A DNA stretch of 58,533 nucleotides, filler included, from Jimgerdemannia flammicorona (Eukaryota): NCBI GenBank assembly GCA_003990765.1. It is 3 parts of 3 records of this genome, joined end to end, with 100 filler letters (N's around TTAATTAATTAA, not from the genome) between each part and the next. Parts side by side here need not be neighbours in the genome. Positions count along the whole stretch, not along the records: positions 39,094 to 58,533 come from RBNJ01001938.1; 2 more parts are not named here. One strand, written 5' to 3'. Below, one piece after another: positions 19,449-58,533 of this stretch. Both the position numbers and the translations under genes were made by a program. Numbering within the stretch: position 1 is the stretch's first letter; every line of letters begins with the position of its first letter. The notes below the pieces were generated by a model. It did not search any database. It had not been told where the DNA came from and saw nothing but the letters and a program-made list of their open reading frames with translations.

Positions 19449-19548
19449 NNNNNNNNNNNNNNNNNNNNNNNNNNNNNNNNNNNNNNNNNNNNTTAATTAA
19501 TTAANNNNNNNNNNNNNNNNNNNNNNNNNNNNNNNNNNNNNNNNNNNN
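19449..19548. other. Assembly gap/linker (44N-TTAATTAATTAA-44N)
   Basis: Artificial all-frame stop spacer. An identical construct lies at 38994-39093. Confidence 0.97.

Positions 19549-21008: not shown

Positions 21009-21058
<50 letters not shown>
19549..21058 (+). mobile_element. L1/Tx1-like non-LTR retrotransposon, 3' part with poly(A)
   Basis: RT-thumb RYLGIFL, W.GRRSQVSWDTL..P...GGLGLVDF motif, zf-RVT-like CEEC...EHWLGEC, G-rich 3' end, AATAAA and a ~47-nt A tail (21012-21058). Confidence 0.9.
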
Positions 21059-21061
<3 letters not shown>

Positions 21062-21549
21062 TATATAAGTTTGGTAGATCAGAAATTGAGAGCAATCCAG
21101 GTAGAGGTATTTGAGAATATTTGAGTATAAGAAGTACTAGAGAGACTCTATATAATTAATAGATAGAGAGAATGATATTATATATATAAAAGGATTACAA
21201 TTGCTGTAACTTAACTAGTGAAGTATCTAACTTAGATATAGATAGATTCAGTAGAGCTTATAATATATATAGATAACTATGTAATACTATTCTGAGATAG
21301 ATACTAAACTAAAAGATAAATATTGAACTAAAACTAGTACTAACATTTAAATTAAATAGGTGTGAAATAAAATAAATACTAAAACTGATACTAGTATTTA
21401 AATTATAATAGGACAAAACTGGTATAAACTGAGAAATATATTATCTTAAGATACTTAGGTTATGAGGAAACTAATTTATATGACTGTATAAATGTCTACA
21501 ATTTGGCCACTTTGCTGAAGTTTAAACTAAATTTATAACTATATTATAT

Positions 21550-24500
21550 TTTTTAATAAATTTAATATTTTAAGAACTTTATTAGTTTTTAGAGTCTTTT
21601 CAAAAACTTTTACAGTATATTGTATAATGTTATTTAATCTCAGATCTAATTAAGTAAGAGTTATGTTAATTTTAAAAGTCTTTGCAATAGCCTCTATACT
21701 ATTATTATTGATATTATTTACTCTTAAGTCTAATGAGATAAGAACTTTATTAGTTTTAAAAATATATATAATAGTTATTATATTTTTCTCTTTTATTACA
21801 TTTAATGATAGATCTAATGAGATGAGAGTTTTATTTATTCTAAGAGCCTTTCTGATGGTCTTTACACTCTTATTAAAGATGCCATTATTTTTTAGAACTA
21901 ATAATGAGAGAGTCTTATTAGTTTTGAGAACTTTTATAATAGTTTTTATACTCTTCTCTCTTATATTATTCATTCTCAGATTTAATAAGGTAAGGGTTTC
22001 ATTACTTTTGAGAGCTCTTATAATGATCTTTATACTACTTACTAAAGATATTATTTACTCTCAGATCTAATAATATAAGAGCCTTATTAGATTTGAGAAC
22101 TTTGTACTCTCCTCTCAGATGCAATTTGATGACAGATCTATTGAAGTATAGCTATTGTTAGTTTTAAGGGCTTTTGTGATGGCTATTGCACTCTCTATAC
22201 AAATGTGATTTGATAACAGATCTAATAAAGTGAGGATGTTATTACTTTAGAAGATTATTGTAATGGCCTTTATATCCTTATCAAAGATATAATTTGATAA
22301 TAGATTTAATAAAGTAAGGCTATTATTGATTTTGAGAGCTTCTGCAATAATCTTTGTATACTTATAGATGAAATTTGATGATAAATCTAATAAAGTGAGG
22401 ATATTGTTAGTTTTGACAGTCTTTGTAATGATCTTTACACTCTCCTCCAAGATATAATTTGATAACAGATCTAATGAAATGATAATATTGGTTTTGAGGG
22501 CCTTTGCAATGACCTTTGTGCTTTTCTTCCTGATGTTTTTTGATGATAGATCCAATGAGGTAAAAAGAAGATAGATATAGTAAATTTGCACTGATCATAC
22601 TCTCGAAGATCGACTCATTGCAAAAATGGTTTAGTCCAGGGCGAGATTATGTCAAGAGAATCCAGACAATAGTTACAGATCAGGATTACCTCCATCAGCA
22701 TTGTGGTGTCCAGTTAAAGGTACTTGAGGACTAAACAGTTGGGGTACCATTAAGAAAGGGGACCTGAAGCTACACCTCTTGCAGATTGGCACACTCTTTC
22801 ATTACTAGGTGTTTGAGAGATAGAAACTCTGCTGGAAACCCCTGAGATGGTGTGATCTTAAGAGATTCAATGGATTTGATCCAGGAAGATTTCTTGATAT
22901 AAGTCAAGAGAGTAAGCTGTGGACAGTAATTCAAGTTCAAGTACTCCAGGAAATTGCCACAGGCATTATAAAGGACACTAAATCCGGAATTGTTGAAGGC
23001 TTGGGCGCCCTGTAGATTGACACTAGTCAAGTGATGGCTACGGTCCTGAAATACTGAGGGTTTGAAATACTCTTTAATCAGATGGTAACTGTTGACAAAT
23101 TCCAGGCTTGTATGAGGAGTCTCATTAGCAAAGAGAACTTTGAGATTTTTTTTCTCCACCTCTGGAATTTGGGTGGCCATATTTCACTTTTTGTCTAGTA
23201 CCCATTCTCCTTCCAAACGCCCCATTTTCTGCTTGAATCTTTTGGCACAAGACCTGAAATCTCTCCAAGGCGTCTTGAGGTCCTGTTCTAAGCTCTTTGC
23301 GCTTCTTGTGATTTGCAATAGGTGCATAAATGTCAATCTCCAGAATCTTCAGCATTTCTTTGGTATTTATTGAAGTGATGGCGATACTTGCATTGCGGCG
23401 TCGATACAAATCATCGGTTACCATGCAAAACCTGCCCTTCAATGACCGAAGACTTCACCATAACTCTTAGTGGATGATGGTTGGATTTTGCAAAACCTCC
23501 CTTTGCAAGCGATGGGCTTTTCGATAGAGATTTTTCATGGATACATAGTGAGGGTAGCGGAGGATGCAAGACTGTGCATTTATACAGCAGTTGTTGTAGC
23601 AGATCTTCGGGAAAAAGTTTTTGATAAGTCTCTTCAACAATTTTCAACTCTTCCATCCAGGTGGTTAAAAATTCGTCAATCTCTAATATGCGAATCTGCT
23701 CTCTTACCACTGAGGGCAGAGGATCACACATCTGTGATAGACAAAGGTCAAGGTTTTGGCTTGCAACTGGGTGACAGCCTTAAAAGGAGCGCCAGCACCT
23801 TGTCCTTGATAAAGGACGCCGGGCAGAAAGGCGTGATCATTGTCTATAGGAATGAGGCGCTGGTTATCAGCGCTGATAATAAAGTTGTCTTCCTTGCTGT
23901 CTTCAGGATTAAGCAACATGGAGGCGACAATCATTCGACTTGTGAACACTGGATCTAGGTAAGCAAAGATGTCGTCGTTGTCCCAGACGGTATAAAGAAC
24001 ATTTCCTCTAACAGCTTGGCTCACGAGAACAGGGTAGGGGCCGTTCTTGGGGTTATGAAACATGAAGAGCTCGCAAAATGGAATATCTTGGAGATTCCAA
24101 CCACGCAAAAAGCGGGCGACGGCATATTCATAAACTGGAAGTTCCGGATAGGTTTTGAAGTAGAGCTTGGGGGTATTTTGCGGATAAAAGGTTACGGGGC
24201 TGCGTCCCGTGAGCGTTGTGTCAGCTTCAAACTGCCCTCGATGATTCAGGATGTGCCTACTGAGGTGGCGCTCGCCCATTAAAGCACATTTTACGTTCAA
24301 AGAGTACACCATCCGGTGCAGGACCACGGGGCAAAGCTTGAGCAATGGTGAGGCGCCATGCGAGTTGGGGATTGTGCGGCAGGAAGGGATCAAACATCCG
24401 GCCCAACGCCAGCGAGATGTCGGGGCCATATTGGAACGGATGGTTTTGCAGGTGCTGCTGGATCTCTTCCCAGAGATTGGCGGCGAGCTCGGAATTATTG

Positions 24501-28793: not shown

Positions 28794-29747
28794 TTATACA
28801 GCTTTCAAAAACTCTTTCACAACACCTACGAAACCCTCCAAATCTTCCACAAACGGCCAATGCCCCACCCCCTCAAACTCCACAAATTTCGCCCCAGGCA
28901 CTGCCGTAGCAATCTTCCTGACTCCGTCGGAGGGCCTTGGATCCGCCGCCCCATGCACCATGAGGATAGGGACATCAGCTAACACCTCTTCGATCGCATT
29001 CCGCTCCACGAAATCTTCGGCATCAGCCCACTCCGATGTTTCATGACCTAGCACACGGTTCACCTCCAGATTCGGCTCACCGCCCGACACAATCTCCCGC
29101 GCCATCTCATACGCCCGATCAGGGTCAGCGGAGAAGCACCCGAGCTCGGAAGCTGTTGATAGAACCGATGCTTCGCGTTCTAACGTCTTGTAGCTCTCCA
29201 TCACGTATGGGACAACGGTCGCGGGTCGGTTGCGCGCCTTTTGTCGCATCTCGCGAAGCTCTCCAAGTCGGTCCGGACCCAGCAGCGTCGCGCGGTTGGA
29301 TCGATACGCGTCGTGCCATTCAGGAAATCCCACGCCCGTGCCGGAAACGTAAATCAAGCCTCTCACCCTCGTCGGATGCGCTAGTGCGTAGACGAGAGCC
29401 AAGCTTGCGCCGAAGGAGTGGCCCAGTACGATCCAGCGGCTGACGCCCCAGTGTGTGCGCAGGCGTTCGAGGTCGGAGAGCCATATAGAAAGGTTGTATG
29501 GTGGCGGAGAGGCGGAAGAAAGGCCACAGGCACGTTGGGAATAGGTGTAGACGGTATAGTGACGCGAGAGGGCCAGGGATAACCGGTCGAAGTAATCCCA
29601 CATTCCCGGGCCGCCGTGCAGGCAGACGATGGCGGGGAGGGAAGTGCCACGGCGTGTGGTGTGCAGGGAAACGCCGGCAGGGAGTTGAACGCCTTCGGTG
29701 ATGAGGTCCGGAGGTGGGAGGGAAGAGGGCGAGGGTGGAGGATTCAT
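28794..29747 (-). CDS. Alpha/beta hydrolase, proline iminopeptidase-like (peptidase S33 type), 317 aa, intronless
   Basis: CLHGGPG oxyanion motif, nucleophile GHSFG, acid HGAADP and catalytic GVGHWPF in one intact ORF. TATAA lies on the minus strand ~65 nt upstream (29809-29814). Confidence 0.9.
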   Translation of the reverse strand: MNPPPSPSSLPPPDLITEGVQLPAGVSLHTTRRGTSLPAIVCLHGGPGMWDYFDRLSLALSRHYTVYTYSQRACGLSSASPPPYNLSIWLSDLERLRTHWGVSRWIVLGHSFGASLALVYALAHPTRVRGLIYVSGTGVGFPEWHDAYRSNRATLLGPDRLGELREMRQKARNRPATVVPYVMESYKTLEREASVLSTASELGCFSADPDRAYEMAREIVSGGEPNLEVNRVLGHETSEWADAEDFVERNAIEEVLADVPILMVHGAADPRPSDGVRKIATAVPGAKFVEFEGVGHWPFVEDLEGFVGVVKEFLKAV

Positions 29748-32426: not shown

Positions 32427-33514
32427 TCACCTTCCCTCATTCAACGGCTTTCTTCCGTATGCGTACGGCGCATTCGTATAGCATCTACAGGCTCCATAGT
32501 CCTCATGGAACTGCCCAGCCAGATCCGCGTAGTCGTCTTCCCCTATTCCCAACACCGGCATGATCGACGGCTTCAGCGCATCCATCAGGAACGACATGTT
32601 CCGTTGCAGCAGAACCCCAGGTCGACCCCTCCACCCTATTGGGCACGAAATATAGTCGGCTGCCACGCCCGTGAACCCGTTATCCGTCAAGAGAGAGCCG
32701 AGCCTTGTCGGGTATTCGATGTCGATACCACGGGAGAGGGTTGTTGTGCGGACTATTGTGTGGGAGAGAGGGAAATAGGAATGAGATACGGAATTTGAGG
32801 AATAGGCCAGTGGGGAAGACGGAATTGTCATTTGAATACATTATACATACGAGCGTCGTAGAACCGACTATACCCCGGTGGCCCGTTGATGAAGTTAAAA
32901 CTCCCCTCGATGAGCTCCAGCCAGCCCCCCGGCTTCGTCACCCTCGCAAGCTCGTGTATCGCCGCCACCCAGTCGTTCTTCGTAAAGCTTAGGAAGAGAA
33001 ACCGCTGGTAGACAAAATCGAACTCCCCGTCAGCGAACGGTAGGCCCTCGACGGTGTCCGCGGTGATGAATGTCAGGTTCGGCGGCAGGCCCACAAACTT
33101 CGGAACAACATCTGGCAGCTCCGTCGCGATGAAGGTCGACCTCGGGTATTCCTTGGCCATCTCGATGCTCCACCGTCCGCTGCCGCAGCCGGCGTCCAAA
33201 ACGGTGATGCCCTTCTCCAGGAGCTCCTCGACGGGGGAGTTGAAGTTGCCCTGCAGAAGATAGCTGGAAGATCGAGCGAAGAAGGAAGATGAGGCGGACG
33301 ACCGACAGTCGAGAAACACACAAACTCACATAGATGTCAACTTAGCAACTTACCGTGCCATATAGTGTTGATAATCCAACCTATTGATCTCGTCCTCGTC
33401 ACACGGCAGAACGTGACTTGTATTCCCGCGCGACCTGAACTTGCGATCCTGAATGATTTTGAACCCTGGTGGACATGAAGTGTTCCTCCCTTCTTTTGGG
33501 TTAGTGTCGGTCAT
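32427..33514 (-). CDS. Class I SAM-dependent methyltransferase paralog, 3 exons
   Basis: Exons 33514-33354, 33263-32851, 32752-32427 with GT-AG introns in frame. Motifs: LPCDEDEINRLDYQHY, VLDAGCGSGRW, GLPFADGEFDFVYQR, RVTKPGGWLEL, YGRKP. Confidence 0.92.
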
Positions 33515-38979: not shown

Positions 38980-39862
38980 ATTTTTTTTTTTTTNNNNNNN
39001 NNNNNNNNNNNNNNNNNNNNNNNNNNNNNNNNNNNNNTTAATTAATTAANNNNNNNNNNNNNNNNNNNNNNNNNNNNNNNNNNNNNNNNNNNNCCCCCCC
39101 TACCCCTTCTCTGTGAAAGACCACTTTGTCGAACACTATCCCCACCCTCCCACTACTCTGCTCACAGATCCTTACCACCAAACTGTGACGTCGTCCCCCC
39201 TGAGGACCCCAACCCACCCACCATCCAGTCAGCAGATCCCCCACCAGCTCCTCCCACCTTAATACTTTCTCTTGCAGCCCCAACTGCTGCCCCTCCTCAA
39301 ATACAAAAAGTCAATATCCTGCCAATCCCACCCATACTGCTAACACCCACCCTACAGTGAGCCAACTATCCCCCACCCCACCCACTAGCTGAGATCTTAA
39401 GTCCTCCCAGCGACCCCCCTCCCCCACCAGCCAACACTCCACACCCAGTCTATCCCCTATCTCAGCCCAAAATTCCCCCAAGACTGCACACTCTCTCAGC
39501 CAATATTCTGGTATCTGTATATGACCCCCAGCTTGCCCAACATCATAACACTCCTTGCAGTCAAATTGTCTACCCTCTACTAAATACTCCAAGCAGAAAT
39601 TCAGCATGACATTCCTCCACAACATTCTCCACCATACCACCCAGAACTTGGGAGGAAGCTACCTCTGTACCTCTGCACTCTAAGACCAGATGCCTACTCA
39701 GTCCCACTCCTCTCCAATTCCAACCACCTGCCAGCCACTTGGCCAAAGATCCTGGCCAAGCCCCTGCTGACACTCCACTCTCTCCCCAATATTGAATGTA
39801 GCCAGTGGAGTACCCCCCAGGAGCAGTCTATCCCAATGCCACATATTAGGCCCCCATGCCAC
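38980..39862 (-). mobile_element. L1/Tx1-like fragment (same family as 19549-21058), spanning the gap
   Basis: 39094-39862 is the reverse complement of ~20150-20910 with transitions. Poly(T) at 38980-38993 fits its tail. Confidence 0.85.
38994..39093. other. Assembly gap/linker (44N-TTAATTAATTAA-44N)
   Basis: Artificial spacer. Confidence 0.97.
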
Positions 39863-41357
39863 CCTGGAATAGTCTTGATGGCATGGTCTACTACTCATTT
39901 GGGAGGTAGGCCTTTTGGGAGTTTCTTTGGGAATATGTCTCAGAATTTCTAAAGTAGTGATCTGACATAGCTGTCAACTTTGGAAAAGTCTTCTTCAGAG
40001 TTCTCGGGTTCTCCTTTGGATGGGCAGATGGAGATAGCAAAGAGAGGGCATTTCTTGGCCAATTTCTTGAGTTGTAGCTTGTTGATGTAAGTGATCTTTG
40101 GTCCAGTATCACAGGAGTTGAGTGGGTTCTTTTCACTTTATAGTTTGAAGTTATGGCATCCTTTCTTAATAATCAGAGAATGATTTACCCAATCAATCAT
40201 GAGGTTCTCTTGTTTCAACCATAAGGTTCCAAGGATGATTTCATTGTCAGGAAGTGGTACAATCTGGAGGGTAACATGTACTCAGTAGTCACCAATTTGG
40301 AAGGATAGGTTGCAGACTTCCTTGCTGATAATATGTGAGGTTCTATTGGCTGTAGTAACTGCTTGAGTTTGTTGTATTGGGGAGGTGAAGACCTTGAGTC
40401 TGTTGGCTATTTCTTCATTGATGAAGTTGCCTGAGACACTACTGTCTATCATAATTTTGACAGGTACTTGATTGACAAAAGCTTGAAGTATAAGCAGTTT
40501 GTCTGATCCAATGGTGGGAATTTCGGTTATAGGAGCTTTTCTTCTATTGATTCTTCTTTGAGCCAGTTTATTGACATAAGAGAAGCAATCATCAATCATA
40601 TGAGAAGAGTACATTCCAATGCCATGGGGGTACCAGCCACTTAGTACATATCTGTCTTCGATTTTCTTATAGAATTATTCTTCCTTGCTTATGGTAGGTT
40701 GGGCTGGGGCCTTATTTGATGAGCTAAATCTTTTGGATCCTCAGATGGTGGCAGTAGTTCAGAAACTTCCTTGACTATCAGGGTTGACTTGATCTTCTCA
40801 AATAGGATCTGGGCAATACAGAAACCAATAAGGATCTTGAAGGGTGTCCAACTGTGGTTTTGGATGAGGATAATAATTTTGCCTGTATAATCTTCATCAA
40901 TAACTCCTCCTTCTACTGAGAGTCCTTTCAATGCTAGGCTGCTGTGACAGCATATTCTTCCAACATATCCTTCAGGAATTTGGATGCTGATTCCTATGTA
41001 GACTTGCTTGACTTCTCAGTTGGAAACTGTAGCTTCTTCGGCTACATACAGGTCATATCCAGCTGCTCTTTGACTTCCTTTGGTTGGGGCCTTGGCAGTT
41101 TGCCTTAACTTGATAAAGTCTAGTGTTCTGGTGGTCAGGTTGTTGAGGTGGTGCAGAGTGGTAACAGTTGCTCATATTGCTGTTCAGGGTTTTTGGTTAG
41201 AGCAGGCACTGGCCATGTATCCTATCTTTCGGCAATAGAAGCATGCTCTGCTTCTTTGAAGTTCATTTCTTTCTCCTTCAGTGAGTTTCTTGAAGATACT
41301 CAGCTGGATGGGTTTATGATTTCTGGGTGTCCAAGAGGTGGATGTGGAGGGGGCTCA

Positions 41358-44300
41358 TATAAGAGGGTTGCTTTTTAGGGTAACCATTATATAGTTCTGA
41401 AAGGGTTTTCTGGAAGTTCTAGATATTCTGGAAGACTGTTTTCTTATGGTCAAGATCAATTTCATATAGAGTACATCCTCTATGCTTATTGATTTCAAGA
41501 TTGAGTTGATGTCTCAACCAAAGTCCTTTTTTCGAACTAGTTCTGGATATTCAGGATTTTCTGTATTTCAGAAAGTTTAAGAAACTAAGACCAGCTTAGT
41601 TGAATTGGCATATCGCTGCAGACAATACCCAATTAGAAAATTTCATGATAGAGTTAGGAGTAGGACCTAATGGGGAGCAGGTTTACTTAAGAGTAGTTTG
41701 TGGGTTATTAAATAGGTTTATTTACTATTCATGATATTGCTATACTAGGAGTAGTTGTATAAAGGGATATTGTGGGGAAGTGCTTAGGAGTTGTGTTCAG
41801 ATTGTTCAAGTGTTCAAGTCTGAGATTCTGAGGTCTGAGGGAGAGGGTATTTATATTAGTGAGGGGCTATCTGGACTATACTAGATATAGATGTAGCATT
41901 AAGTGTCTTACTGAGTCAGAATGCAGTTATATAGTACAAGTGTGATCTGATATATCAAGAGATCATCTGACTACTGAGTCAGTTCACAGTCATATCATAT
42001 AAGGCTAATCTAACTATACTATGACTGCTAAGCTATTTATAGGTTTAGACACTATCTGGGTAGTCTTTGATGACATCACTATTGATAACATCATTGCTGG
42101 CAAAGTCTGAGCAGTTTTCTGACTTCTGACATCATCAGTTTCAAGGTGTCATCACTTCTATCTCTTGCAAGATTAAGGCTGTTCTTGGTGGCAGTAGTTG
42201 TATAAGGATAACAGGTCTTGGTTCTTTTTTTTTTTAGTCTGCTGGTATATTTGCAAGAACTGACCATTCTTGTCTAGGGTGAGGGCTCCCAATGTTGCGA
42301 CTGGGGGTTTGAACCTCTCGAAAATGATATTTTCTGTAATCTGAGGCAATTTATAGTAGTAATATCTATCATGTGGATGGCTTGAGATTGATTTCGATGA
42401 TGTTGGCTTTTTTGAGTTTAGATGAAGCATCCATCACTCTCTAATAGAGGTAATACAGATAGAGCAAACAGAGTTGTTCAAATGTATTTTGCTTTTGCTA
42501 AGTAATGAGGTCTTGTATAGTTGTAGTGTATTCTGGTCTTGAGTTAATAAGTATAGTTCATGAACCTTTTGGTAGATGAGATAGGGTTCTTCTTGTCTCG
42601 ATTTGAGTTTGGTACTTTCAGTTTCCTTTTATAATAGTACAGTATACTATAACTAGTTATAGTGGTTCAGAGTTAGTCTTGTAGTTATAGTACTTCTTCT
42701 AGTATTCTTGTATCTTGGTAGTGGGTTCTCATACTTGCTGGTATATTTCATATAACCAGATGATCTCTTCAGTAACTTGTTTTGTAGTCTCACATGTAGT
42801 TTTCAAATTAGTTCTGAGGATGCTATGCAATTTTGGTGGCTTGGAAGTTGTGTGCTTACAACTCTCCCCTTTTTAGCTTTTGACATCCTTGTCAGGGCTT
42901 TCTAATTTGTTCTGGTGTTGTTGTACCATTTGGATGGTTCTTGTGGCTATATTTGTTGAGGATTTGTTCAACTTTGTATTCTTCTTGGTCATTAATAATG
43001 ACAGATACAGGTAGTTCTGTGGTTTGGTTCAGAAATGTGTCTTGGGCTTTCTAGAGTAGTGGTCTGACATGGCTGTCAACTTTGGAAAAATCTTCTTCAG
43101 AGTTCTCAGGTTCTCCTTTAGATGGGCGGATGAAGATGGCAAAGAGAGGGCATTTCTTGGCCAATTTCGTAAGTTGTAGCTTGTTGATGTGGGTGATCTT
43201 TGGTCCAGAGTTACTAGAACTGAGTGGGTCCTTTTTACCTTGCAGTTTGAAGTTATGGCATCCTTTCTTGATGGTCAGAGAATGGTTTACCCAATCGATC
43301 ATGGGGTTCTCTTGTTTCAGCCATGGGATTCCAAGAATGATTTCATTGTCAGGAAGTGGTACAATTTGGAGGGTAATATGTACTTGGTAGTCTCTAATTC
43401 AGAAGAGTAGATTGCAGACTTTCTTACTAATAACATGTGAGGTTCCATCAGCTATGGTGACTGCTTGAGTTTGTTATACCAGAGAGGTGAAGACCTTAAG
43501 TCTGTTGGCTGTCTCTTCATTGATGAAGTTGCCTGAGGCACTACTGTCTATCATAATCTTGACAGGTGCTTGGTTGACAAAAGCTTTAAGAGTAAGCAGT
43601 TTGTCTGATCCAATGGTGGTGATTTTGGTTGTAGGAGCTTTCCTTCTGTTGGTTCTTCTTTGAGCCAGTTCATTGATATAAGAGAAGCAATCATCAATCA
43701 TTTGGGAAGAGTACATTCTAATGCCATGGGGGCATCAGCCACTTGGTACATATCTGTCTTCGATTTTCTTATAGAATTGTTCTTCTTTGTTTGTAGTAGG
43801 TTGGGCTGAGACCTTGTTTGATGAGCCAAATTCTTTGGATCCTTGGATGGTGGGCAGTAGTTTAGGGACTTCCTTGACTGTCAGGGTTGATTCGATTTTT
43901 TTGAATAGAATCTGTACAATGCAGAAACCAATAGGGATCTTGAAGGGTATCCAACTGTGGTTTCGGATGAGGACAATAATTTCACCTGTATAATCTTCAT
44001 CAATGACTCCTCCTTCTACTGAGAGTTCTTTCAATGCTAAGCTGCTGTGACAGCATATTCTTCCAATATGTCCTTCAGGAATTTGGATACTGATTTCTGT
44101 ATAGACTTGCTTGACTTCTCAGTTGGAAACTGTAGCTTCTTTGGCTGCATACAGGTCATATCCAGCTGCTTTTTGACTTCCTTTGGTTGGGGTCTTAGCT
44201 GTTTGTCTTAACTTGACAAAGTCCAGTATTCTGGTGGTCAGGTTATTGAGGTGATACAGAGTGGTAACAGTTGCTCATGTTGCTGTTCAGAGTTTTTAGT

Positions 44301-47300
44301 TGGGGCAGACACTGGCCATGTGTCCTGTCTTTCGGCAATAGAAGTATGCTCCACTTCTTCAAAGTTCATTTCTTTTATCTTTGGTGAGTTTCTTGAAGGT
44401 ACTTGGCTGGGTGGGTTTATGATTTCTGGGTATCCATAAGGTGGATGTGGAGGGAGCTCGGGATGCCTCATACTTGGGCTCTTCTTTCTTAGTCCAAGTC
44501 TTTTCCTTGTTGTTGAATTGTCTTAGGGGCAGAATTGGTCCAGCTGTTAGGATTTGCTTGACCATAGTCTTGATTCTTGCTAGGCACCATTGTTGGTGAT
44601 CACAACCAACTGGGTAGCCTTGTTCATGGATTTTTCTTATAAGCCATTCAGGCAGAGCATCAAATAAATGGTCTACTCTTATACCATTTTGTGCTTCATC
44701 ATTGGTGATATATCCTAGGCCAACAGTGTTCAGGAGTGACTCAAGTTTTGTATAGAAGGTTTTGAATTCTTCTTTGCCATGTACATTAAATTTGAGATTG
44801 CGGAGTTTTACTTAAGATTCAGCAATCATAGTTTCACTGTGGTATTGGGCAATTATGAGTTGTTTGAGTTCAGGGGCTACGGATGGGCTCTATATCCTGG
44901 GGCATTGTTTGCTGTATTCTGAGCAACTACTGCAGGTTGGGTATCCTATGTGAGGGGTTTTTCAGGAAGGATTCGCCACCATTCTTCAGCAGGTCCTCAG
45001 AAGAATATAACAACTCAGCAGACATAGGCTATAGTGATAGCAAAGAGTTGTTCCAGAGTGTGGTCTTGATTGTTTGTCAGAACATGGTCAGCAACTTGCT
45101 CATTGGTCCATTGATTGGCTTTGAAGTTGGTGTCAACTATACTAATAAAGCTTTGGACTTCTTGTGCAGTACCATTGAAGGTAGGTAGGCTCAGATTTTT
45201 GGTAGGTCGGGTCTGTTTGGCTAAGGCAGTAATGGTGGCTGCCATTATCGCTATCTGGGCTATGAGGTCTAGAATCTGTTGATTCACCATATTGTTTCTG
45301 AAGGTGATTGGACTACTGGTAGTGGTGTTACTGGTACTACTTGAGGTACTGGTGTAGAGTGTGAGGGTGTTCTTTGGGTCTGTGTAAGATGCTGGAGTAG
45401 TAGTTGTGGGTCTGGAGTAAGGGCTTGATAGATAGCTGTTTGTTGCTGTGTAGGTATATTCTATCCTGATGGAAGTGCATCTCCTTCAGTGGTGTATCCA
45501 GGATCAAATTCACTAAGATACTCCTCTTCTTCTTCAGTTTGGTCCCCATGTAATTGGGTTTGCTCAGCATCAAAGTAGACAGAATCAGTGGTATATCTGA
45601 TTTCAGATGGACTTAATTCAAAGTCAAGTTCAGGTTCAGTATTGGTTTCAGATTTAGGTAGAGCTGTAGCAGGGCCTGCTTCTGGTTCAGAGTTAGGTAG
45701 TTGATGAAGGATTTCTCTTACTTCTTCTTTAAGAATATAGCAGGCCTTGCTGTTCTAGAATCGATAGTATAGTGTGGTCTTGGTTCTGGTATAGTGAAAA
45801 TCAGTAGAGTTGAGCCACTTGGCTACAGAGGCTTGGGCTTCATGAGGAACTAAGACTAGAAAGACTGCTGCTGGTTGTCCTAAGTCGCTCAGATTTGTAG
45901 AGCTGACAAAACTCTTATTGAGAAGAGTAAAGAAGGCTTCTATAAGACCTTCTTCATCTTGACTTGCTGGGTGTAGAGCAAGGAGTTCAGTGAATAAGGT
46001 CTCATCTATTTGCTGATTTAACTGGAGTATTTCTTTCTTCGAATAAAGCTTGTCCTACTTATTGTAGGTATGGAGGTCAAATTGTCCTTGTATGTCAGGT
46101 TCAATTCTCTCTAGATTGTCAGATGGTTCAGGATAAATTCCAGTTCAGAGGTTGGGCTTTATACCAACTTGTAGAAATTTGCAGAGGGGTTTGTAACAGG
46201 GTGAGGAAGTATCTTGAAGCAAAATTGGATTGTAAACCGCTGCTACCAAGTTGTAAGAGGGTTGCTTTTTAGGGTAACCATTACATAGTTCTGGAAGGGT
46301 TTTCTGGAAGTTCTGGATATTCTGGAAGACCGTTTTCTTATGGTCAAGATCAATTTCATATAGAGTATATCCTCTATACTTATTAATTTCAAGATCAGGT
46401 TAACATCTCAACCAAAGTCCTTTTTTCGGACTAGTTCTGGATGTTCAGGATTTTCTATATTTCAGGAAGTTCAAGAAACTAAGACTAGCTTAGTTGAATT
46501 GGCATATCGCTGCAGACAATACCCAATTAGGAAATTTTGTGATGGGGTTAGGAGTGGGACCTAACGGGGAGCAAGTTTACATAAGAGTGGTTTATGGGTT
46601 ATTAAATAGATTTATTCACTATTCATAATATTGCTATACTAGGAGTAGTGGTGTAAAGAGATATTGTGAGGAAGTATTCAGGAGTTGTGTTCAGATTATT
46701 CAAATGTTCAAGTCTGAGATTCTGAGGTCTGGAGGAGAGAGTATTTATACTAGTGAGGGGCTATCTGGACTATGCTAGATATGGATGTAGTACTAAGTGT
46801 CTTGCTGAGTCGAAATACAATCACATAGTACAAGTGTGATCTGATATATCAAGAGATCATCTGACTGCTGAGTCAGTTCACAGTTATGTTGTATAAGACT
46901 AATCTAACTATACTATGACTGCTAAGCTATTTATAGGTTTAGATACTGTCTGGGTAGTCTTTGATGACATCACTATTGATAATATCATTACTGGCAAAGT
47001 CTGAGCAGTTTTCTGACTTCTGACATCATCAGTTTCAAGGTGTCGTCACTTCTATCTCTTGCAAGATTAAGACTATCCTTAGTGGTGGTGGTTGTACAAG
47101 GATAATAGGTCTTGGTTCTCTTTTTTTTTGATCTGCTGGTACATTTGCAAGGACTGACCATTCTTGTCTAGGGTGAGGGCTCTCAATGTTATGGCTGGGG
47201 GTTCAAATCTCTTGGAAATGATATTTTCTATAATCTGAGGCAATTTCTAGTAGTAATATCTGTCACATGGATGGCTTGAGATTGGTTTCAACAATGTCAG

Positions 47301-47754
47301 CTTTCTTGAGTTCAGATGAAGTATCTGTCACTCTCCAACAGAGGTAACACAGATAGAGCAAACAGAGTTGTTCAAATGTGTTTTGCTTCTGCTAAGTAAT
47401 AAGGTCTTGTATAGTTGTAGTATATTCTGGTCTTGAGTTAATAAGTACAGTTCATGAACCTTTTGGTAGATGAGATAGGGTTCTTTTTGTCTTGATTTGA
47501 GTTTGGTACTTTCAGTTTCTTTTTGTAATAGTACAGTACACTATAACTAGTTATAGTAGTTCAGAGTCAGTCTTGTGGTTGTAGTACTTCTTCTAGTATT
47601 CTTGTATCTTGGTGGTGAGTTCTTGTACTTGCTGGTATATTTCATGTAACCAGATGATCTCTTCAGTAACTTGTTTTATAGTCTTACATGTGGTTTCCAA
47701 ATTAGTTCTGAGGATACCATGTGATTTTGGTGACTTAGAGGTTATGTGCTTATA
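41358..47754 (-). mobile_element. Gypsy family C, inner non-autonomous copy nested in the gag of the outer copy
   Basis: Two 1503-bp LTRs (41358-42860, 46252-47754), 5-bp TSD GCTCA (41353-41357, 47755-47759), PBS TGGTAGCAGCGG (46237-46248), PPT AAAAGGGGAGAGT (42861-42873). Internal order is gag-dUTPase-PR, then a direct junction (~43050) to a chromodomain remnant (EEYKVEQILN). RT, RH and IN are absent. Confidence 0.93.
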
Positions 47755-50239
47755 GCTCAGGATGCTTTATACTTGGGTTCTTCCTTCTTGGTCCAAGTCT
47801 TTTCCTTGTTGTTGAATTGTCTTCAGGGCAGAATTGGTCCAGCTATTAGGATTCACTTGACCATAGTCTTGATTCTCACCAGGTACTATTATTGGTAATT
47901 GCAATCAACTGGGCAGTCTTGTTCTCAGATTTTTCTAGTAAGCTATTCAGGCAGTATATCAAATAGATGGTCTGCTCTTGTATCATTTCGTGCTTCATCA
48001 TTGGCAATATATCTCAGGCCAATGGTATTCAAGAGTGATTTGAGTTTTGTACAGAAGGTTTTAAATTCTTCTTTGTCATATATATCAAATTTGAGGTTGT
48101 GGAGTTTTACTCGAGATTCAGCAATCATGGTTTTGCTGCAGTATTGAGCAATTATGAGTTATTTGAGTCCAGGGGCTGCAGGATGGGCTCTATATCCTGG
48201 GGCATTATTTGCTGCATTCTGAGCAACTACTGCAGATCGGGTGTCCCATGTAAGGGATTTTTCAGAAAGGGTTCACTACTATTCTTCAGCAGGTCCTCGA
48301 AAGAATATAACAACTCAGTGGACATAGGCTGTGGTGGTAGCAAAGAGTTGTTCCAGAGTGTGGTCTTGATTGTTTGTCAGAACACAGTCAGTAACTTGCT
48401 CATTGGTCCATTGATTGGCTTCAAAGTTAGTGTCAACTATACTAATAAAGCTTTGGACTTCTTGTGTAGTACTATTGAAGATGGGTAGGCTTAGATTTTT
48501 GGTAGGTTGGGTCTGTTCAGCTAAGGCAGTAATGGTTGCTGCCATTATGGCTACCTGAGCTATGAGGTCTAGAATCTATTAGTTTGCTATATTATTTGCT
48601 AGAGGTAGTTGGACTACTGGTAGTGGTATTACTGGTACTACTTGAGATACTGGTGCAGAGTATGAGGGTGTTCTCTGGGTCTGTATAAGTTGCTGGAGTA
48701 ATAGTTATGAGTTTGGAGTGGAGGCTTGATAGATAGCTGTTTGTTGCTGTATAGGTGTATTCTGTCTTGATGGAGGTACTTCTCCTTCTATAGTATATCC
48801 AGGATTGAATTCACTAAGATACTCCTCCTCCTCTTCAGTTTGGTCCTTATGTAATTGGGTTTGCTTGGTATCAAAGTAGACAGAATCAGTTATATCTGAT
48901 TTCAGATGGACTTAATTCAAAGTCAAGTTCTGGTTCAGTATTAGTTTCAGGTTCAGGTAGGGCTGTAGCTGGGCCTGCTTCTGGTTTGGGATCAGGTAGT
49001 TGATGAAGGGTTTCTCTTGCTTTTTCTTTAAGAATATAGCAGGCCTTGCTGTTCTGGAATTAGTAGTATAGTACAGTCTTGGTCCAGGTATGGTGAAAGT
49101 CAGTAGAGTTGAGCCACTTGGCTATAGAGGCTTGGGCTTCATGAGGAACTAAGGCTAGAAAGACTGCTGCTGGTTGTCCTAGATCACTCAGATTTATAGA
49201 GCTGACAAAACTCTTGTTGAGAAGAGTAAAGAAGGCTTCTATAAGACCTTTTTCATCTTAACTTGCTGGGTGTAGTGCAAGGAGTTCAGTGAATAGGGTT
49301 TCACCTATTTGCTAGTTTAATCAGAGTATTTCTTTCTTTGAATGAAGTTTGTCCCACTTGTTATAGATGTGGAGGTCAAATTGTTCTTGTACATCAGGTT
49401 CAATTCTCTCTAGATTGTCAGATGGTTTAGGATAAATTTCAGTTCAGAGGTTGGGCTTTATACCAACTTGTAGGAATTCTCAGAGGGATTTGTAGTGGGG
49501 TGAGGAAGTGTCTTGAAGCAGAATTGGATTGTAAACCACTGCTACCAAGTTATAAGAGAATTGCTTTTTAGAGTAACTGTTACATAGTTCTGGAAGGGTT
49601 TTCTGGAGGTTCTGGATATTCTGGAAGACTGTTTTCTTATGGTTAAGATCAATTTCATATGGAGTATATCCTCTATGCTTATTGATTTCAAGATTGGGTT
49701 GACATCTCAACTAAAGTCCTTTTTCAGACTAGTTTTGGATATTCAGGATTTTCTATATTTCAGGAAGTTCAAGAAACTAAGACCAGCTTAGTTGAATTGA
49801 TATATCGCTGCAGACAATACCCAATTAGGAAATTTCATAATAGGGTTAGAAGTGGGACCTAACAGGGAGTGGATTTACTTAAGAGTGGTTTGTGGATTAT
49901 TAAATAGGTTTATTCACTATTTATGATATTATTATATATACTAGGAGTAGTTGTGTGAAGGGATATTATGGGAAGTGTTCAGGAATGTTCTTGTGTGTTC
50001 AAGTCTGTTCCAGTCTGAGATTCTGAGGTCTGGAAGAGGGGGTATTTATACTAGTGAGGGGCTATCTAGACTATACTAAATATGGATATAGCACTAAGTG
50101 CCTTGCTGAGTCGGAATGCAGTCACATAGTACAAGAGTGATCTGACATATCAAGAGATCGTCTGAATGCTGAGTCAGTTCAAAGTCATGTCATATAGGGC
50201 TAATCTAACTATACTATGACTGCTAAGCTATTTATAGAT

Positions 50240-51699
50240 TTAGATGCTATCTGAGTAGTCTTCGATGACATCACTATCGATAACATCATCTCTGATGAAG
50301 TAGTCATCCAGGAAGAGTAGTTTGCAGATTACTTCTCCTTCTTGGCTAAGGTAGTAATATATTAGGACTTTGTTGCTGTCCCACAGGATAGCATCATCTG
50401 TCTCATATGCTGGATAAGATGTTAGTAGGTGAAGGAGTAGTGTATTATCTTTGCTTTCATCAGATTCACTATCTGCATACCTTCTATAAGTTACAATACT
50501 ATGAGTCATGTAGTTGTAGTTAGTGCTCTCAACAAATCGAATCAAGGGTCCAATTCGATTTGAAGTTCGATTCGAACCTTAATTTTCAAAATATAATAAC
50601 TCGACGAAAACTCATCCAAATTTAACGTATTTTAGCTTGTTAGATTCACTGTATTAATGTGATTCTAACAAGCTAAAGTATGTTAGATTTGGATGAGTTT
50701 ATGCTGAGTTATTGTATTTTGAAAATTAGGGTTTGAATCAGACCCTCAATTCGATTCGACTTTTGATTCAATTCAAATTGATTTGAATTGAAAAATCCCC
50801 AATTCGATTCGACTCGTTTAACCCTCAATTTGATTCAATTTGAATTGATTTGACTCATTTGAGAGCACTAGTTATATGTAGTATGCTGACAGCTGTGGTT
50901 TATATGGCTCATACTTAGGTGGTGGAGTGATTGGTTCAATCTCAAGGATTGTCTGAAGGTATAGGTTGTGTTCTCTAGTCTCTTCATTGTAGTTGAAGTA
51001 GTCGGGAGTGAACGTGGGTTGGTATTCATATCAGTGGTCATTGTCTCAATAAGTCTCATATGTAGTTATGAACTATTGTAAGTTCATTGACAAGATTGGC
51101 AGCATGATCAGAGTTGGTAGAGATTCTTGGCTTGAGGTCATGTTGGCATCAAAGGGATCATTGTCTTCTGCTTCATTTTTGTCAAATCAAATTATGTTGT
51201 AGATATCCTTCATAGCATATCTGACTTAAGACATTTGTAGGATATGGTCATCAGGGTATAGGAAGGTTTTGTCTGTGGTTTCAATATACTTGAGGTAATT
51301 GTGGTTGAGTTCTTATATCATGTCATTGATTTGGCCATAGGACAGGGTAGCAATCATTTTACTGATAGTAACTTGGAGGTGGGGAATAAAGGTACTATAC
51401 TCATAGAAGAGTTCTCGGTGTTTGCAGGCAATGAGCTTCTGGTATTGAGACATCTGAGTGATATCTGTATCATGGTGGTGTTCGACCATGTCTTCCAGGA
51501 GGCAGCCGATCTGATAGTAGCTTGAGATTTGTCTGATTTGGTAGGCCTCAGTAAGCATGTTCAGGGCATTCCATCAGGCTTCCACAAAGTAGAGGGATGC
51601 CAGGCTATAGATATTCATAAGGGGCAGAGGGGGTGTAGCTCAGTTGACAATAGCATTCCAAATATCAGTACAGATGCAGTTATAGATCTTGGTGGTCAT
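50240..51699 (-). pseudogene. LTR-embedded accessory ORF of unknown function (~370 codons after removing the MITE)
   Basis: ACACAAAC-ATG at 51699 with a TATA-like run at 51769-51779. One frame continues across the 350-bp MITE with several TAA/TGA/TAG stops. Similar to the ORF at 57393-58250. Confidence 0.6.
50521..50870. mobile_element. hAT-family MITE (350 bp), same family as 8618-8954
   Basis: Perfect terminal inverted repeat TAGTGCTCTC...GAGAGCACTA, TTCGA/GAATT pentamer arrays and an internal inverted repeat (~50570-50740). TSD not clean. Confidence 0.88.
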
Positions 51700-52050
51700 G
51701 TTTGTGTGTTTGGAAGTTGTGGTTGTTGTTTGTTTTGGTTCTCTGTTTCAACATATCTTGGTGCTCAGTATATATATATTTGGTCCTGATTGGTAAGATT
51801 CCATTTATGTGAATCTTATATTCTGTGACTTTGTATTGACTCAGCTTTGTAATCAGGCAGATTATTTCCAAATTTGTTTGGAGGTCACATGTGATTTCAG
51901 TGGCTTGTTCAGAGGGTGATGTGTGATTTCAGTGGCTTAGAGGTTATACACTTACACTTATTTATATTCTTTTACAATTACTCATATTTCTTTAGACTTT
52001 CTCTAGTATTATCAAAGTAAGTAGAGAGAGCTTTAGTTTTTAGAGTAATC

Positions 52051-53980: not shown

Positions 53981-55405
53981 TTTTTTTTTTTTTTTTTTTT
54001 TTTTTTTATAGTCACTTGGACTCTTCCTTTATTATACCCATCTATCCTATATAAGTATAGTGAACCCACCCCCTATCCAATCCCCCTAGAGGGGCCCCTC
54101 CCCTCTATCCCTTCTCGACGAAACACTACTCTATCAAATACAATCCCCACTCTCCCACCACTCTGTTCATATATCCTCACTACCAAACCTCACTGCCGCC
54201 ACTCTGAAGGACCCCAACCTATCCACCATCTAGCCAACAGATCCCCCAACAGCTCCTCCCACCTTAAAACCTTCTTCTGCAGACTCATCCACCACTCCTC
54301 CTCAAATACAAATAGCCAATATCCTGCCAATCTCACCCAAACTGCTAATACCCACCCAACAGTAAGCCAACTATCACACACCTCCCCCACCAGCCAAGAT
54401 CTCAAGTCCTTCCAGTGATCTCTTCCACCTGCTGGCCTACACTCCACACCCAGTCTATTTTCTATTTTAACCCAAAAGTCCCCCAAAATCTCACACTCTC
54501 CCAGCCAATGTTCTGGTGTCTGCACCAAACCCCCAGCTTGCCCTACATCATAACACTCCTCACAATCAAAACAGCCACCATCCACCAGATACCTGGTGCA
54601 GAAATTCAGCATGACATTCCTTCATAGCATTTACCACCACACTACCCAGAACTTGGGAGGAAGCCACTGCCGTACCTCAGCACTCCAAGACCAGATACCT
54701 GCCCAGTCCCACTCCTTGCTGATCCTGACTGCCTGTCAACCACTTGGCCAAAGGTCCTAGCCAAGACCCTTCTGACACTCTACTCCATCCCCAATATCAA
54801 AATCAGCAAGTAGAGCACCCCCCAGTAGCAGTCTATCCTATCGCCACATACTAGGACCCCACAACACCCCCCCCTCATTGCCTTGCCAGTATAGACTAAT
54901 TCTGTATACTCTATTGACCACTCCTCACCAAAAGCCCTTAAATCGCAGCCACTGAATTCCATTGAGCCCTACTAAAGAGAGTAGATCTCCTGAGGACTCT
55001 TGGGGGGAGGTTCTCATCTCCCACACCTTCTGCATCAGAAGTACCCACCCCCCTCCCTGTAGTTCAGCTGCTCTCTTCAACCACCAGGCTCGCAAGCAGT
55101 GCAACCTCTTAGGGAAATCCACAAGACCAAGACCTCCTCTGTCCACCAGTATCGCAAGAGTATCCCAACTAATCTGGGACCTCCTCCCTGCCCAAATCCA
55201 ATCCCTAGCCACCTTTGTCAGCCTCTTCACCACCCAAACTGGGAAGTCTAGGTGATATGCCACATACTATAGCTTGGGGAACCAGTATGTATTCAGAATT
55301 GATACTTGCCCTGCTAGAGAGATATGGCAGCCTCTCCAACCTTGAAGGGCCTCCCCCCAAATAGCCACCCTGCTCTCCCACCACACTCATGGCAAGACAG
55401 AACCA
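53981..55405 (-). mobile_element. 5'-truncated L1/Tx1-like insertion with poly(A) and TSD, inside the hAT transposase
   Basis: Poly(T) 53981-54007, TSD TATCAAGATCTAG (53968-53980 and 55406-55418), same ORF2 motifs as the other two copies. Confidence 0.93.
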
Positions 55406-56728
55406 TATCAAGATCTAGTTATCACTATAATATCTTGATCAATTTAAAGTATAATGTAAAGCTTTTAGAATCAGCAATTTAAAAGAACTTATTCTGGATA
55501 TTAAGACTTAGTGGAATTTGATATATTTTATAATTGAATGGATCTTAGAATTATCAGAGATAAGTTTTATATTATATTATATTATATTATATTATAATTT
55601 ATATTATAATAATTTATTTATTAATAAATTAATTTTTATTAATAGCCCTTAACCACAATAATTATGGTCAATAAAGATTTGCAAAAATATACTATTGAAG
55701 ATAATACTTGGCAGATACTAAAAGATATTATGAAAATTCTAAAGAACTTTTAAAAGACAATAGATCTTGCAGCTAAACAGAAATATATAATAGTTTATAT
55801 GACTATTCTAATTTACAACTATCTGCTGAATAAGTTGGAGGATGACAAAGATATTTGAATACTAAAGATAGAAGAGCTGACAGATATTATTTACTAGACA
55901 ATAACAGCAGCTATTGATAAGTTGAAGATATATTATTCAATGACAGATAGTCTTTATTATATTAGGACTAGTAAGTAAATATTTCAATAAATCTATTATT
56001 CAAAATTTGTTTGATCAGTTGGTCACTACAAATCTATTTTTTGAAATAAAAACCAGTTTTCAATTCCAGGATTAAACTAGGATATTATTTATCTTATAGT
56101 TGGGAAGACATTTAGATCCAAGAGACTGAAAACACACTTTGTATAGTCTATAACAAAAACTATACTCCTCTATCTGGATCAGTTTATCACATAATTTCCA
56201 ATATTGATGTCAATATTGATGTTGATGCTATAATTGAAGATAATAATGACATCCTTACTGAACTAGATAAATATATATTCTATAGTAACAAAAGATAAAA
56301 ACTGACAACAAATCCAGAGTAAGAGGTAGATACTTATTTAAAAAGTGAAATTGTTAAATTTCAATTAGGAGTTAATATATTATTATAGTGATAAGTGAGT
56401 TGGGCTTTCATATTCAAATTTGATCTATATATTTCAAAAGTTTTTTCTAATTAATTAATTTATTAGAAATATTAAAGCCATAGCAGAGATTTCTGAAATT
56501 TAGCAAAAATAGCATGTGACTATTTAGCTATCTCAGCAACAAGTGCTCTAATTGAGCAGGTTTTTTTAAGTAGTACAGATCTTATAATACCCAAAAGAGG
56601 TACTTTAGACCCTAAAATGATCTATAAACATATGCATTTAAAGATATAGTAATCAGTCTAGTATTCTGATCTTAAAATATAGTATAATCTCAAAATATAG
56701 TTTCTCAAAATACTAAATATATATATAT

Positions 56729-58492
56729 TGTCATGTAGTGGTTACTGAGTCCTTCAAATACACCAGATTCTCTTCAAGGTATATCTCTTAGACTAACTCA
56801 AGTTGTTATAAGCAAGTTCTTATTGGAGTGCCTTCCCAAGGTCTTATAGTCCTCAAACTTCTTATCTTTAACTGTCTTGTTATCTCTTAGATTGCTTGCA
56901 AGGAATTGTGTATTGCACTGAGAGGAACTATATTATATACATTGTCATATAGTGGGTATTGAGTTCTTCAAATACATCAGATTCTCTTCAAAGTATATCT
57001 CTTAGACTAACTATAAGTTTGTTATAAGCAAGTTCTTATTGGAGTGCCTTCCCAAGGTCTTATAGTCCTCAAACTTCTTATCTTTAAACTGTCTTGTTAT
57101 CTCTTAGATTGCTTGTAAGGAAGTATATGTATTGCACTGAGAGGAACTGACTTTATTTCAGAGGAAATAAGAGAGGTATTTATACAAAATATAATTCAAT
57201 AGTTGCTAAGATATAAAGCTAAATATAAATTCCAATAACTAAAACTACTAAGTTCCAGGGCTGGCATTATTTAGTACCATATCAAAATACCGGTGCTGGA
57301 ACAATTTCGCATCACCTCAGAATACCAGTGCTGGCATTATTCAGTGTTACATGAGAATACCAGTGCTGGCATTATCCAGTGTAACAAAGAACTTAGAGCA
57401 GAAAGTTCAGGATCATGGGAACTTCATCATCATCATCATCATCATCACTGAAGGAGATGAGGTCTGCAAATTCATTATGTAGGTCATGTGTTTCGCATAC
57501 TTCACATGCCTCGTCACACGGTTCATGTGCTTCAGGTATGTCGTGTGGGATGACATCATCGATGACGTCATCACGTTCGGCTGTGGCAGGGAAGTCAGGA
57601 ACAAGGTCTGGGGCTCTCCAGTCTATGAGGTTCTCTTCCACAAAATAGGGGACAAATGTGGGGTCTTGGGGAGATCTAACCTGGATGCTTGGGCCTTGGA
57701 ATACTGAGATCAATCCTTGCAGGAATTGGTCTGGGTTGTTCTGAAGGATAGGGTGCCAGAAGTCTTCTACTTCTTTGCTGTTGAGGGTGATGGTGGACTG
57801 GGCTTTTGTGGCTACCCTGGCTTCTAGTGCATTGATACAGTGGGATGACAGGTCTCTGAAGTCTGAGACTCTAACATATTCCAAGTTGGGGATCGACTAT
57901 GGTGCATGCCTGAAGATCTGATGGATCTTCTTTGCTGTCCTTGCCTCACGTAAGTCCATGGGGGTGATATCTTGTAGCTCTTGAGGGCTGGCCTGTGGGA
58001 ACTCCTGACAGAGGAGGTTTCCTATTTCGTACTCCTGCCATATTTGGAGGCATTCAGTGGCAATGGTGATCCTTGTTTCCATTTCACAGTGGTAGAGGAT
58101 AAAGTGATAAGGGTCTGCAGTACCCAGGTTGACACTAGGAGTCCTTCTTGAGTGAGTCCTCATGGCTTTTCTGATGTCTTGGAACATCCTTTCCTCGACC
58201 GAGATACCTTGATGATTCCTTGACCTTGAGGTTTGACAAGCAGCAGGCATTTTGTTTGTGGTAAGTCTTTGAGCTATTTTGGGATTGGGGGTTCTTGTTG
58301 GTTGCTGCTACTGTAGTTCCTTGATTCTTCTTTTATATTCTTCAGGATGCTTGTACTGTGGTCACAATGACTCACAGTTGGTCATCATTGCTCATCTCGT
58401 ATGCTGTATGATCTTCTTGTACTCTGATCTGGTGGCTTGTAAAGAAAGGCTGTCTCCTGTGCTGATGTCATCATTCTGGGGTCACTGTTACA
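56729..58492 (-). mobile_element. 3' LTR of retroelement E (~1.55 kb plus duplicated R-U5)
   Basis: Minus strand: PPT AGGAGGAAGA (58493-58502), then TGTAACA start at 58492, main TATAAATA at ~57177-57184, ends ...ATGACA at 56943 and again at 56729. 35-bp repeats at 57255-57385. Confidence 0.82.
57393..58250 (-). pseudogene. LTR-embedded accessory ORF, 285 codons with one in-frame TAG
   Basis: ORFs 57897-58250 and 57393-57884 are in the same frame. ACAAACAAA-ATG start, TATAAAAG at ~58330-58337, acidic C-terminus with a small CDEACEVC motif. Confidence 0.75.
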
Positions 58493-58533
58493 TCTTCCTC
58501 CTGAATAAGGATCTTCCTGAGCATCCTTATTCA

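Follow-up and report, generated by a model that had tools for sequence, protein, structure and literature searches.

The window analysed here is a stretch of 58,533 nucleotides (filler included), joined from three parts of the genome of the fungus Jimgerdemannia flammicorona (GCA_003990765.1). Its minus strand carries long terminal repeats (LTRs) of two distantly related retrotransposon families, designated E and C, and in one LTR of each family an open reading frame (ORF E and ORF C, respectively) lies in sense orientation in the U3 (unique 3') region. Judged by protein relatives with open frames and by the variant pattern of other copies, it is highly probable that these ORFs derive from a real, selected gene in U3. 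The wider claim of a selected accessory gene which is shared by both families and resident in U3 is favoured with more reserve, as it was discounted for the inferred mechanism.

Anatomy of the two LTR families

The limits of LTR E (Table 1) rest on contig divergence as well as on motifs. The repeat has TG...CA ends and a polypurine tract (PPT) directly upstream. Contigs of four public runs were placed on 56500-58533, three runs being soil-metagenome or unlabelled DNA and one guessed to be RNA; the element is highly repeated, with 2035 contigs placed in one run. A break-off at 56728/56729 was found in contigs of all four runs, and in three of the four the contigs continue into a common sequence, reading ..ACTTGGTGCCCATTGG on the element strand. 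This is like the start of a primer-binding site, as expected after 5' LTR copies. At 58492/58493, two contigs of one run break off into two different flanks. The repeat boundaries are common to many copies, therefore, and primer-site-like sequence follows the 5' LTRs. ORF E starts 243 nt inside LTR E and, because it lies inside the 1764-bp repeat and upstream of the main TATA, it is situated wholly in U3.

All landmarks which had been listed for LTR E in the sequence-only reading were retrieved from the sequence, namely PPT, TG start, TATA, ATG, the 285-codon ORF, 35-bp repeats and main TATA. Tandem Repeats Finder reported the 35-bp repeats at 57319-57386 with 1.9 copies (93%). The R-U5 end is doubled, which is due either to a duplication or to a second partial LTR; the two units each end ...ATGACAAT, approximately 13 nt apart, and contig joints in runs X1 and X4 omit 224-232 nt, i.e. 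one R-U5 unit. The run guessed to be RNA had a higher contig depth at 57996-58267, from which no conclusion was drawn since the reads are possibly of DNA and most of the contigs are less than 90% alike.

The outer family-C LTR has the layout which had been proposed for it, with the start TGTAAG, a TATA run, the ATG, the ORF and the main TATA following each other as in LTR E. Compared to two inner C LTRs, its first ~100 bp are 68% and its last ~750 bp 87% alike, hence 51956 is taken as the true LTR start. The middle differs, with 1556 bp in the outer LTR versus 650 bp in the inner ones. ORF C sits in this middle part; in the inner LTRs, all that is left of the ORF is its last ~17 codons. Without the inserted element, ORF C has a length of about 360 codons. 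The insertion, similar to a miniature inverted-repeat transposable element (MITE), has 115-nt arms which are 79% complementary, and a copy of 68-71% similarity is present at 8617-8929.

The inner LTRs belong to a nested C-type element (41353-47759), which is inserted within the body of the outer C element. They form a direct pair with 90.5% identity, flanked by the target-site duplication TGAGC at 47759-47755 and 41357-41353. In the nested element, the PPT AAAAAGGGGAGAG is followed by TGTAAG...TTATA, and ACTTGGTAGCAGCGG stands after the C LTRs. The bodies of the C elements encode a gag protein with CCHC knuckle, an RVP_2-type protease and a dUTPase (Pfam), while no element copy in the window has retained an intact reverse transcriptase (RT) or integrase, each being deleted or interrupted. 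In the nested body, the sequence passes from gag, protease and dUTPase straight to the final ~40 codons ahead of the PPT, with deletion of RT, RNase H and integrase. The peptide EEYKVEQILNK ahead of the PPT resembles the start of a chromodomain by eye; Pfam gave no Chromo match.

Upstream of ORF E, the TATA motif TATAAAAG is preceded by TGAGTCA at a distance of ~35 nt, and the leader from this TATA to the ATG at 58250 is CA-rich and does not contain ATG, whereas ATGs are present between the LTR start and the TATA. Because an upstream TATA and an ATG-free, CA-rich leader recur in both families, we propose that a second RNA polymerase II promoter in the 5' part of U3 would drive the ORF. On these sequence features, the chances that the U3 gene has its own promoter are about even; it counts against such a promoter that the upstream TATA, TGAGTCA and the leader are motifs recognised by eye in one copy per family. 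Of the alternatives considered, the one surviving best is a real gene lacking its own promoter. It would be a 3'-terminal accessory gene, translated from a spliced subgenomic RNA of the main promoter as for nef or foamy-virus bel; the TATA would be incidental, and the gene copies in solo and 5' LTRs would be silent. The ORF is indeed part of the 3' LTR portion present in every genomic RNA, and TATA-like words are frequent in the AT-rich DNA of these LTRs. A splice or an internal start would be needed either way because of the upstream ATGs. However, the TATA is found 70-87 nt ahead of the ATG in both families, together with a similar CA-rich, ATG-poor leader, and no convincing acceptor site for a spliced RNA was recognised by eye. 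Expression from the main promoter only is, thus, considered possible, though rather unlikely.

Probable homology and selection of the U3 ORFs

The DNAs of LTR E and the outer C LTR are dissimilar, as had been observed before: blastn with a word size of 7 gave a single 32-nt match (E 0.67), which is located at the RDDVID site. A relationship was detected with protein profiles. Using a nine-sequence E profile, the C ORF was the best non-self match among 2424 window ORFs (E 0.12). The read-through C protein reached 8.9 bits against the E profile, a value obtained by none of 2000 composition-preserving shuffles (maximum 7.3). With hhalign, the E family was aligned to the intact metagenome relative P0013 of ORF C (described below) with a p-value of 2.8e-4 over 118 columns (E residues 21-141, C residues 8-126), and to the C alignment with a p-value of 8.7e-4. 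The hhalign score of 32.1 was not reached by any of 190 such shuffles (mean 13.2, sd 2.6, maximum 23.5). The longest shuffle alignment comprised 67 columns, whereas ~120 N-terminal residues of E and C are aligned almost end to end; MAFFT placed P0013 in the same register as the E family. Furthermore, the two LTR families have in common the position and orientation of the ORF, its offset from the LTR start, the GTATAAATACC core promoter including the main TATA motif, and, where the LTR meets the primer site, the junction ..ACA-ACT-TGGT. Since the profile evidence is joined by these layout features, the N-terminal domains of E and C are probably homologous.

Alternatively, both ORFs could be unrelated, each LTR family having gained its own U3 ORF, and their likeness would be due to chance and acidic low-complexity motifs. 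Several results speak for this and weigh against homology, i.e. tblastn with the single E protein found nothing in family C at E ≤ 10, a narrow E profile, searched against 2424 window ORFs, placed two other non-self ORFs above the C ORF (E 4), the E-value with the broader profile is 0.12 as given above, and the hhalign probability of E versus C is 23-41% and, hence, below 50%. In addition, the C-terminal two thirds are non-significant (hhalign E 0.45, BLASTP E 0.11), and for the C tail piece 367 of 2000 shuffles were as good as or better than the real sequence against the E profile. An independent origin is nevertheless improbable, considering the shuffle controls, the nearly end-to-end N-terminal alignment and the identical layout. 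The protein alignment made by eye in the sequence-only reading stands up to shuffled controls for the N-terminal ~120 residues, but not for the remainder, apart from the late RDDVID motif, which is seen in both proteins as RDDVIDxDVI. By eye, P.F..YF...ID is common to the C-terminal parts as well.

Protein relatives of ORF E were found in public metagenome proteins (five with E ≤ 0.01 among 481 candidates) and in a search of 1.84 billion representatives (five with E ≤ 0.001). Pooled, both searches gave nine distinct proteins, which are 30-90% identical to E in the alignment. Two of these are open over their whole length, P0003 with 271 amino acids (70% identity) and P0008 with 342 amino acids (36% identity). 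They have a common start (MP..R...QT) and a C-terminal LNF motif, beyond which P0008 extends by ~45 residues. In five of the seven relatives covering the position of the in-frame TAG of ORF E, Trp is encoded instead. For ORF C, the relative P0012 (one of 64 candidates; 247 amino acids, 56% identity) contains no stop and spans the insertion, mapping to both sides of it in ORF C. P0013 (one of three shorter candidates) matches the N-terminal 128 amino acids with 83% identity and has Arg at two TGA codons of the window copy. In the two large protein searches, the few relatives found all came from jgi and ena sources and were unnamed or hypothetical. Variants of other copies in ORF E were evaluated among the best-supported 40 of 299 sites. 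Among the 21 sites falling into the ORF, synonymous changes outnumber the others by 12 to nine, and 7, 2 and 12 sites are at codon positions 1, 2 and 3, respectively (chi-square test, p-value 0.028).

A first scan of metagenome contigs gave no match to the U3 ORF, and none was found in viral and prokaryote genome contigs. The one locus from a second metagenome contig scan (L001), on an AT-rich contig with phage-like ORFs and without repeats, was judged to be a chance match. Neither ORF gave a match to PDB sequences.

Some observations argue against a selected gene. While the position in U3 claimed for the ORFs proved correct for both LTRs, both window copies are broken and represent pseudogenes. 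The end of P0013 coincides exactly with a stop of the window copy. Metagenome proteins are gene calls and, hence, consist of open frames only, several of them being fragments, and the variant sites of ORF E are a selection (best 40 of 299) from mixed soil metagenomes. Moreover, the nested C element was already devoid of the U3 ORF when it inserted, hence the gene is dispensable in cis. The earlier suggestion of a conserved accessory gene is supported in so far as each of the two ORFs belongs to a protein family with open-frame members elsewhere. A functionless passenger, either a captured fragment of a host or foreign gene or a frame open since the DNA is an enhancer, which decays neutrally, would agree with the broken copies, the ORF-less derivative, the lack of a known domain and the ascertainment bias of gene calls, but is very improbable given two relatives whose uninterrupted frames (271 codons at 70% and 342 codons at 36% identity) retain the start and the end, the excess of synonymous and third-position variants (best 40 of 299 sites), protein likeness persisting where DNA likeness is gone, and the few, unnamed or hypothetical relatives in two large protein searches.

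The U3 protein, its proposed function and other features of the window

The product would be a soluble protein of 270-360 amino acids with the conserved start mentioned above, as predicted from the sequences. The N-terminus of the family is polar and basic, the middle is rich in Pro and aromatic residues, and the charge falls steadily towards a strongly acidic tail. This tail contains hydrophobic-acidic motifs, i.e. RDDVIDxDVI and, in E, also DLISFxD and ILNFLL. A hydrophobic segment is absent, the maximum Kyte-Doolittle mean over 19 residues being 0.57-1.05 in seven family members. An env-like reading was rejected due to the polar basic N-terminus, the absence of a hydrophobic segment and the ORF start 243 nt inside the LTR. 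Gag-like and captured-host-gene readings were considered and rejected as well.

An AlphaFold model of P0007, another family member, indicates a helical domain at residues ~21-160 (block-wise predicted local distance difference test, pLDDT, 62-89); according to this model, a helical N-terminal domain of ~130 amino acids may be common to families E and C. Similarity assigns no function to the U3 protein, and the following results detract from any functional reading. The P0007 model is weak overall (pLDDT 65), and the model of P0003, calculated with ten sequences, was too poor to be searched (pLDDT 48). Foldseek on the PDB gave 0 matches at E ≤ 0.001 for the P0007 model. The best Z-score of VIA-align among 48,161 chains was 4.5 (none ≥ 5), which was rated as noise. 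Pfam assigned no family at E ≤ 0.01 to the two window ORF pieces. For ten family members at E ≤ 1, Pfam gave only weak ATG5_HBR matches in three, the best with E 0.028; the family therefore matches no described gypsy ORF3 or env-like domain of Pfam. ESM Atlas contained no match ≥ 0.9 for P0003, and the stored model had a pLDDT of 0.35. VIA-align rows with Z-scores of 3-3.5, i.e. in the noise range, include helix-turn-helix domains (ParB/KorB/SopB/VirB, sigma region 4, DeoR) and serve as a lead only.

In the proposed mechanism, U3 would hold an accessory gene of long standing which encodes a protein and belongs to a lineage of LTR retrotransposons whose body consists of gag(CCHC), protease and dUTPase. 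A gene located in sense orientation between LTR start and main TATA is copied to both LTRs and kept in solo LTRs; the duplication at each transposition and the survival in solo LTRs claimed in the sequence-only reading result from reverse transcription, the mechanism of which is established. In LTR E, the ORF transcript would end at the AATAAA just past the main TATA, so that each LTR E would be a complete gene, as for MMTV (mouse mammary tumour virus) sag under its promoter P2. The protein could be a nuclear regulator, raising the expression of its own element or countering silencing, and the 35-bp repeats are candidate targets of it. Speculatively, the acidic or hydrophobic-acidic tail and the helical N-domain would fit a nuclear regulator. 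The ratio of observed to expected CpG is 0.13-0.28 in all retroelement parts versus 1.05-1.16 in the GC-rich host genes, accompanied by an excess of TpG/CpA. Many window-specific changes are from Arg to Cys, His or stop. Such a pattern is typical of methylated CpG undergoing deamination and not of classical repeat-induced point mutation (RIP). Since CpG depletion marks methylated repeats, a factor boosting expression or counteracting silencing would make sense; a regulator or anti-silencing function is, however, no better than a tentative suggestion. The full scheme is a little less likely still. Under it, every LTR would comprise promoter, ORF and poly(A) signal and, as a gene complete in itself, supply a trans-acting nuclear factor by which the family is switched on or de-silenced. 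Producers and free riders would be linked in a network made up of solo LTRs and ORF-less derivatives, and the gene would be older than the divergence of two or more LTR families which can no longer be aligned at the DNA level.

Outside the E and C elements, a third body (17217-19497, plus strand) encodes gag CCHC, protease and dUTPase in two open frames of 399 and 333 codons from stop to stop. It is ended by a repeat similar to long interspersed nuclear elements (LINEs), and the preceding 2.6 kb do not contain any frame of ≥ 90 codons on the plus strand. This repeat of 0.8-1.4 kb occurs in three copies with 79-90% similarity (19608-21038, 39095-39864 and 53981-55408), and its ORFs resemble by eye the C-terminal part of ORF2 of non-LTR (LINE) elements. 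One copy truncates the plus-strand gag-protease-dUTPase element and one truncates the outer C element. GC-rich, host-like genes were found at 28797-29747 (minus strand), 14107-14595 (plus strand) and 32831-33325 (minus strand); they comprise an intron-less alpha/beta hydrolase (Abhydrolase_1, E 5e-27) and two fragments of class-I methyltransferases. The look-alikes of the alpha/beta hydrolase in ESM Atlas are all bacterial. Diverged tandem repeats with units of ~81-240 bp (65-67% alike) are located at 21542-22560, and their minus strand gives weak matches to leucine-rich repeats.

Table 1. Positions of LTR and ORF features of families E and C in the window.
Feature	Position	Strand	Remarks
LTR E	56729..58492	-	1764 bp, TGTAACAG...CATGACA; 3' LTR, element body past window end; limits from PPT and contig break-offs
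Polypurine tract AGGAGGAAGA	58502-58493	-	adjoins start of LTR E; read from sequence
Upstream ("private") TATAAAAG	58337-58330	-	155 nt into LTR E, 87 nt ahead of ATG; recognised as motif only
ORF E	57393..58250	-	ATG 58250, 285 codons plus stop 57395-57393; in-frame TAG 57899-57897; pseudogene
35-bp repeats, ~4 degenerate copies	57386-57240	-	between stop of ORF E and main promoter
Main TATAAATA of LTR E	57184-57177	-	within GTATAAATACC; same motif in family C; putative main promoter
AATAAA of LTR E	57157-57152	-	after main TATA
Tandem duplication, R-U5 end of LTR E	56712..57148	-	~218 bp x 2, 92%; absent from some other copies
Outer family-C 5' LTR	49551..51956	-	2406 bp including insertion; starts TGTAAG at 51956
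TATA run of outer C LTR	51779-51768	-	~70 nt ahead of ATG 51699, followed by CA-rich leader
ORF C (pseudogene)	50240..51699	-	51699-50875 with 8 read-through stops (X), followed by insertion; remainder open as far as stop 50242-50240
Palindromic MITE-like insertion in ORF C	50519..50877	.	~360 bp
Main TATAAATA of outer C LTR	50050-50043	-	~190 nt past stop of ORF C
Nested element, 5' LTR	46252..47754	-	1503 bp; only last ~17 ORF codons left
Nested element, 3' LTR	41358..42860	-	1503 bp; PPT AAAAAGGGGAGAG upstream

Comparison with known systems

According to the excerpts of PMC9412291, the promoter P2 in the U3 of MMTV drives an ORF (sag/naf) which is itself located in U3. The U3 ORFs of the window resemble sag in being sense ORFs of ~300 codons located wholly in U3 and, hence, in both LTRs. 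The second U3 promoter upstream, which the same excerpts describe for MMTV (PMC9412291), has a TATA motif as its putative counterpart here. A dUTPase is encoded by MMTV and by the window elements. The differences concern the host, which is a fungus here, the element, a retrotransposon for which no env is present in the window, and the protein itself, since the window U3 ORFs do not match any Pfam family, including that of Sag. Sag is a type II membrane glycoprotein, whereas the window family lacks a hydrophobic segment which could serve as a membrane anchor.

The nef gene of the human and simian immunodeficiency viruses (HIV/SIV) and tas/bet of foamy viruses are likewise accessory genes at the 3' end of the genomic RNA which overlap U3. 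Foamy-virus Tas has an acidic activation region, and foamy viruses use an own internal promoter for it. These genes start in the internal region and merely overlap U3, whereas here the whole gene and its putative promoter are inside the LTR. No match in sequence or fold of the U3 protein to their products was obtained.

Extra ORFs of Ty3/gypsy elements (Athila, Tat, Ogre and Retand of plants, the rotifer ORF3 types and the "add. ORF" in fungal chromoviruses) are also lineage-specific and of unknown or borrowed function. In the excerpts of the sources on these elements, none is described as being inside an LTR, and the ORFs of Athila and Retand follow pol. According to the excerpts of PMC2864245 and PMC5408684, elements of basidiomycetes and bdelloids are reported to carry a dUTPase between protease and RT. 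In the subfamilies of crapaud from Podospora, the LTR ends are common and the 5' half of U3 is variable, as stated in the excerpts of PMC10787394; the outer and inner C LTRs have the same pattern of similar ends and differing U3. The crapaud LTRs, however, have 339-443 bp, and the excerpted text does not mention an ORF in them (PMC10787394).

A full-text literature search, with subscription journals and supplements outside its scope, did not yield any LTR-retrotransposon ORF inside an LTR; in the excerpts obtained, an ORF in this position was described for MMTV and, in listings, for other retroviruses only. A conserved gene inside retrotransposon LTRs, as is probably present here, would be an arrangement otherwise known from MMTV. 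Retrotransposon LTRs are regarded as control regions without coding function, a view which would change if the selected U3 gene is real. In this case, solo LTRs, which are usually counted as dead remnants, could be coding, and dating by LTR divergence would not be neutral across the repeat. Retrotransposons would also possess a layer of accessory genes in a position so far known from a mammalian retrovirus. As the U3 protein family has no known relative, it would be a clean target for studying the interaction between the element and host silencing. Under the reading of each LTR as a self-contained gene, the U3 gene would be the retrotransposon counterpart of retroviral transactivators or of the anti-silencing factor of VANDAL elements.

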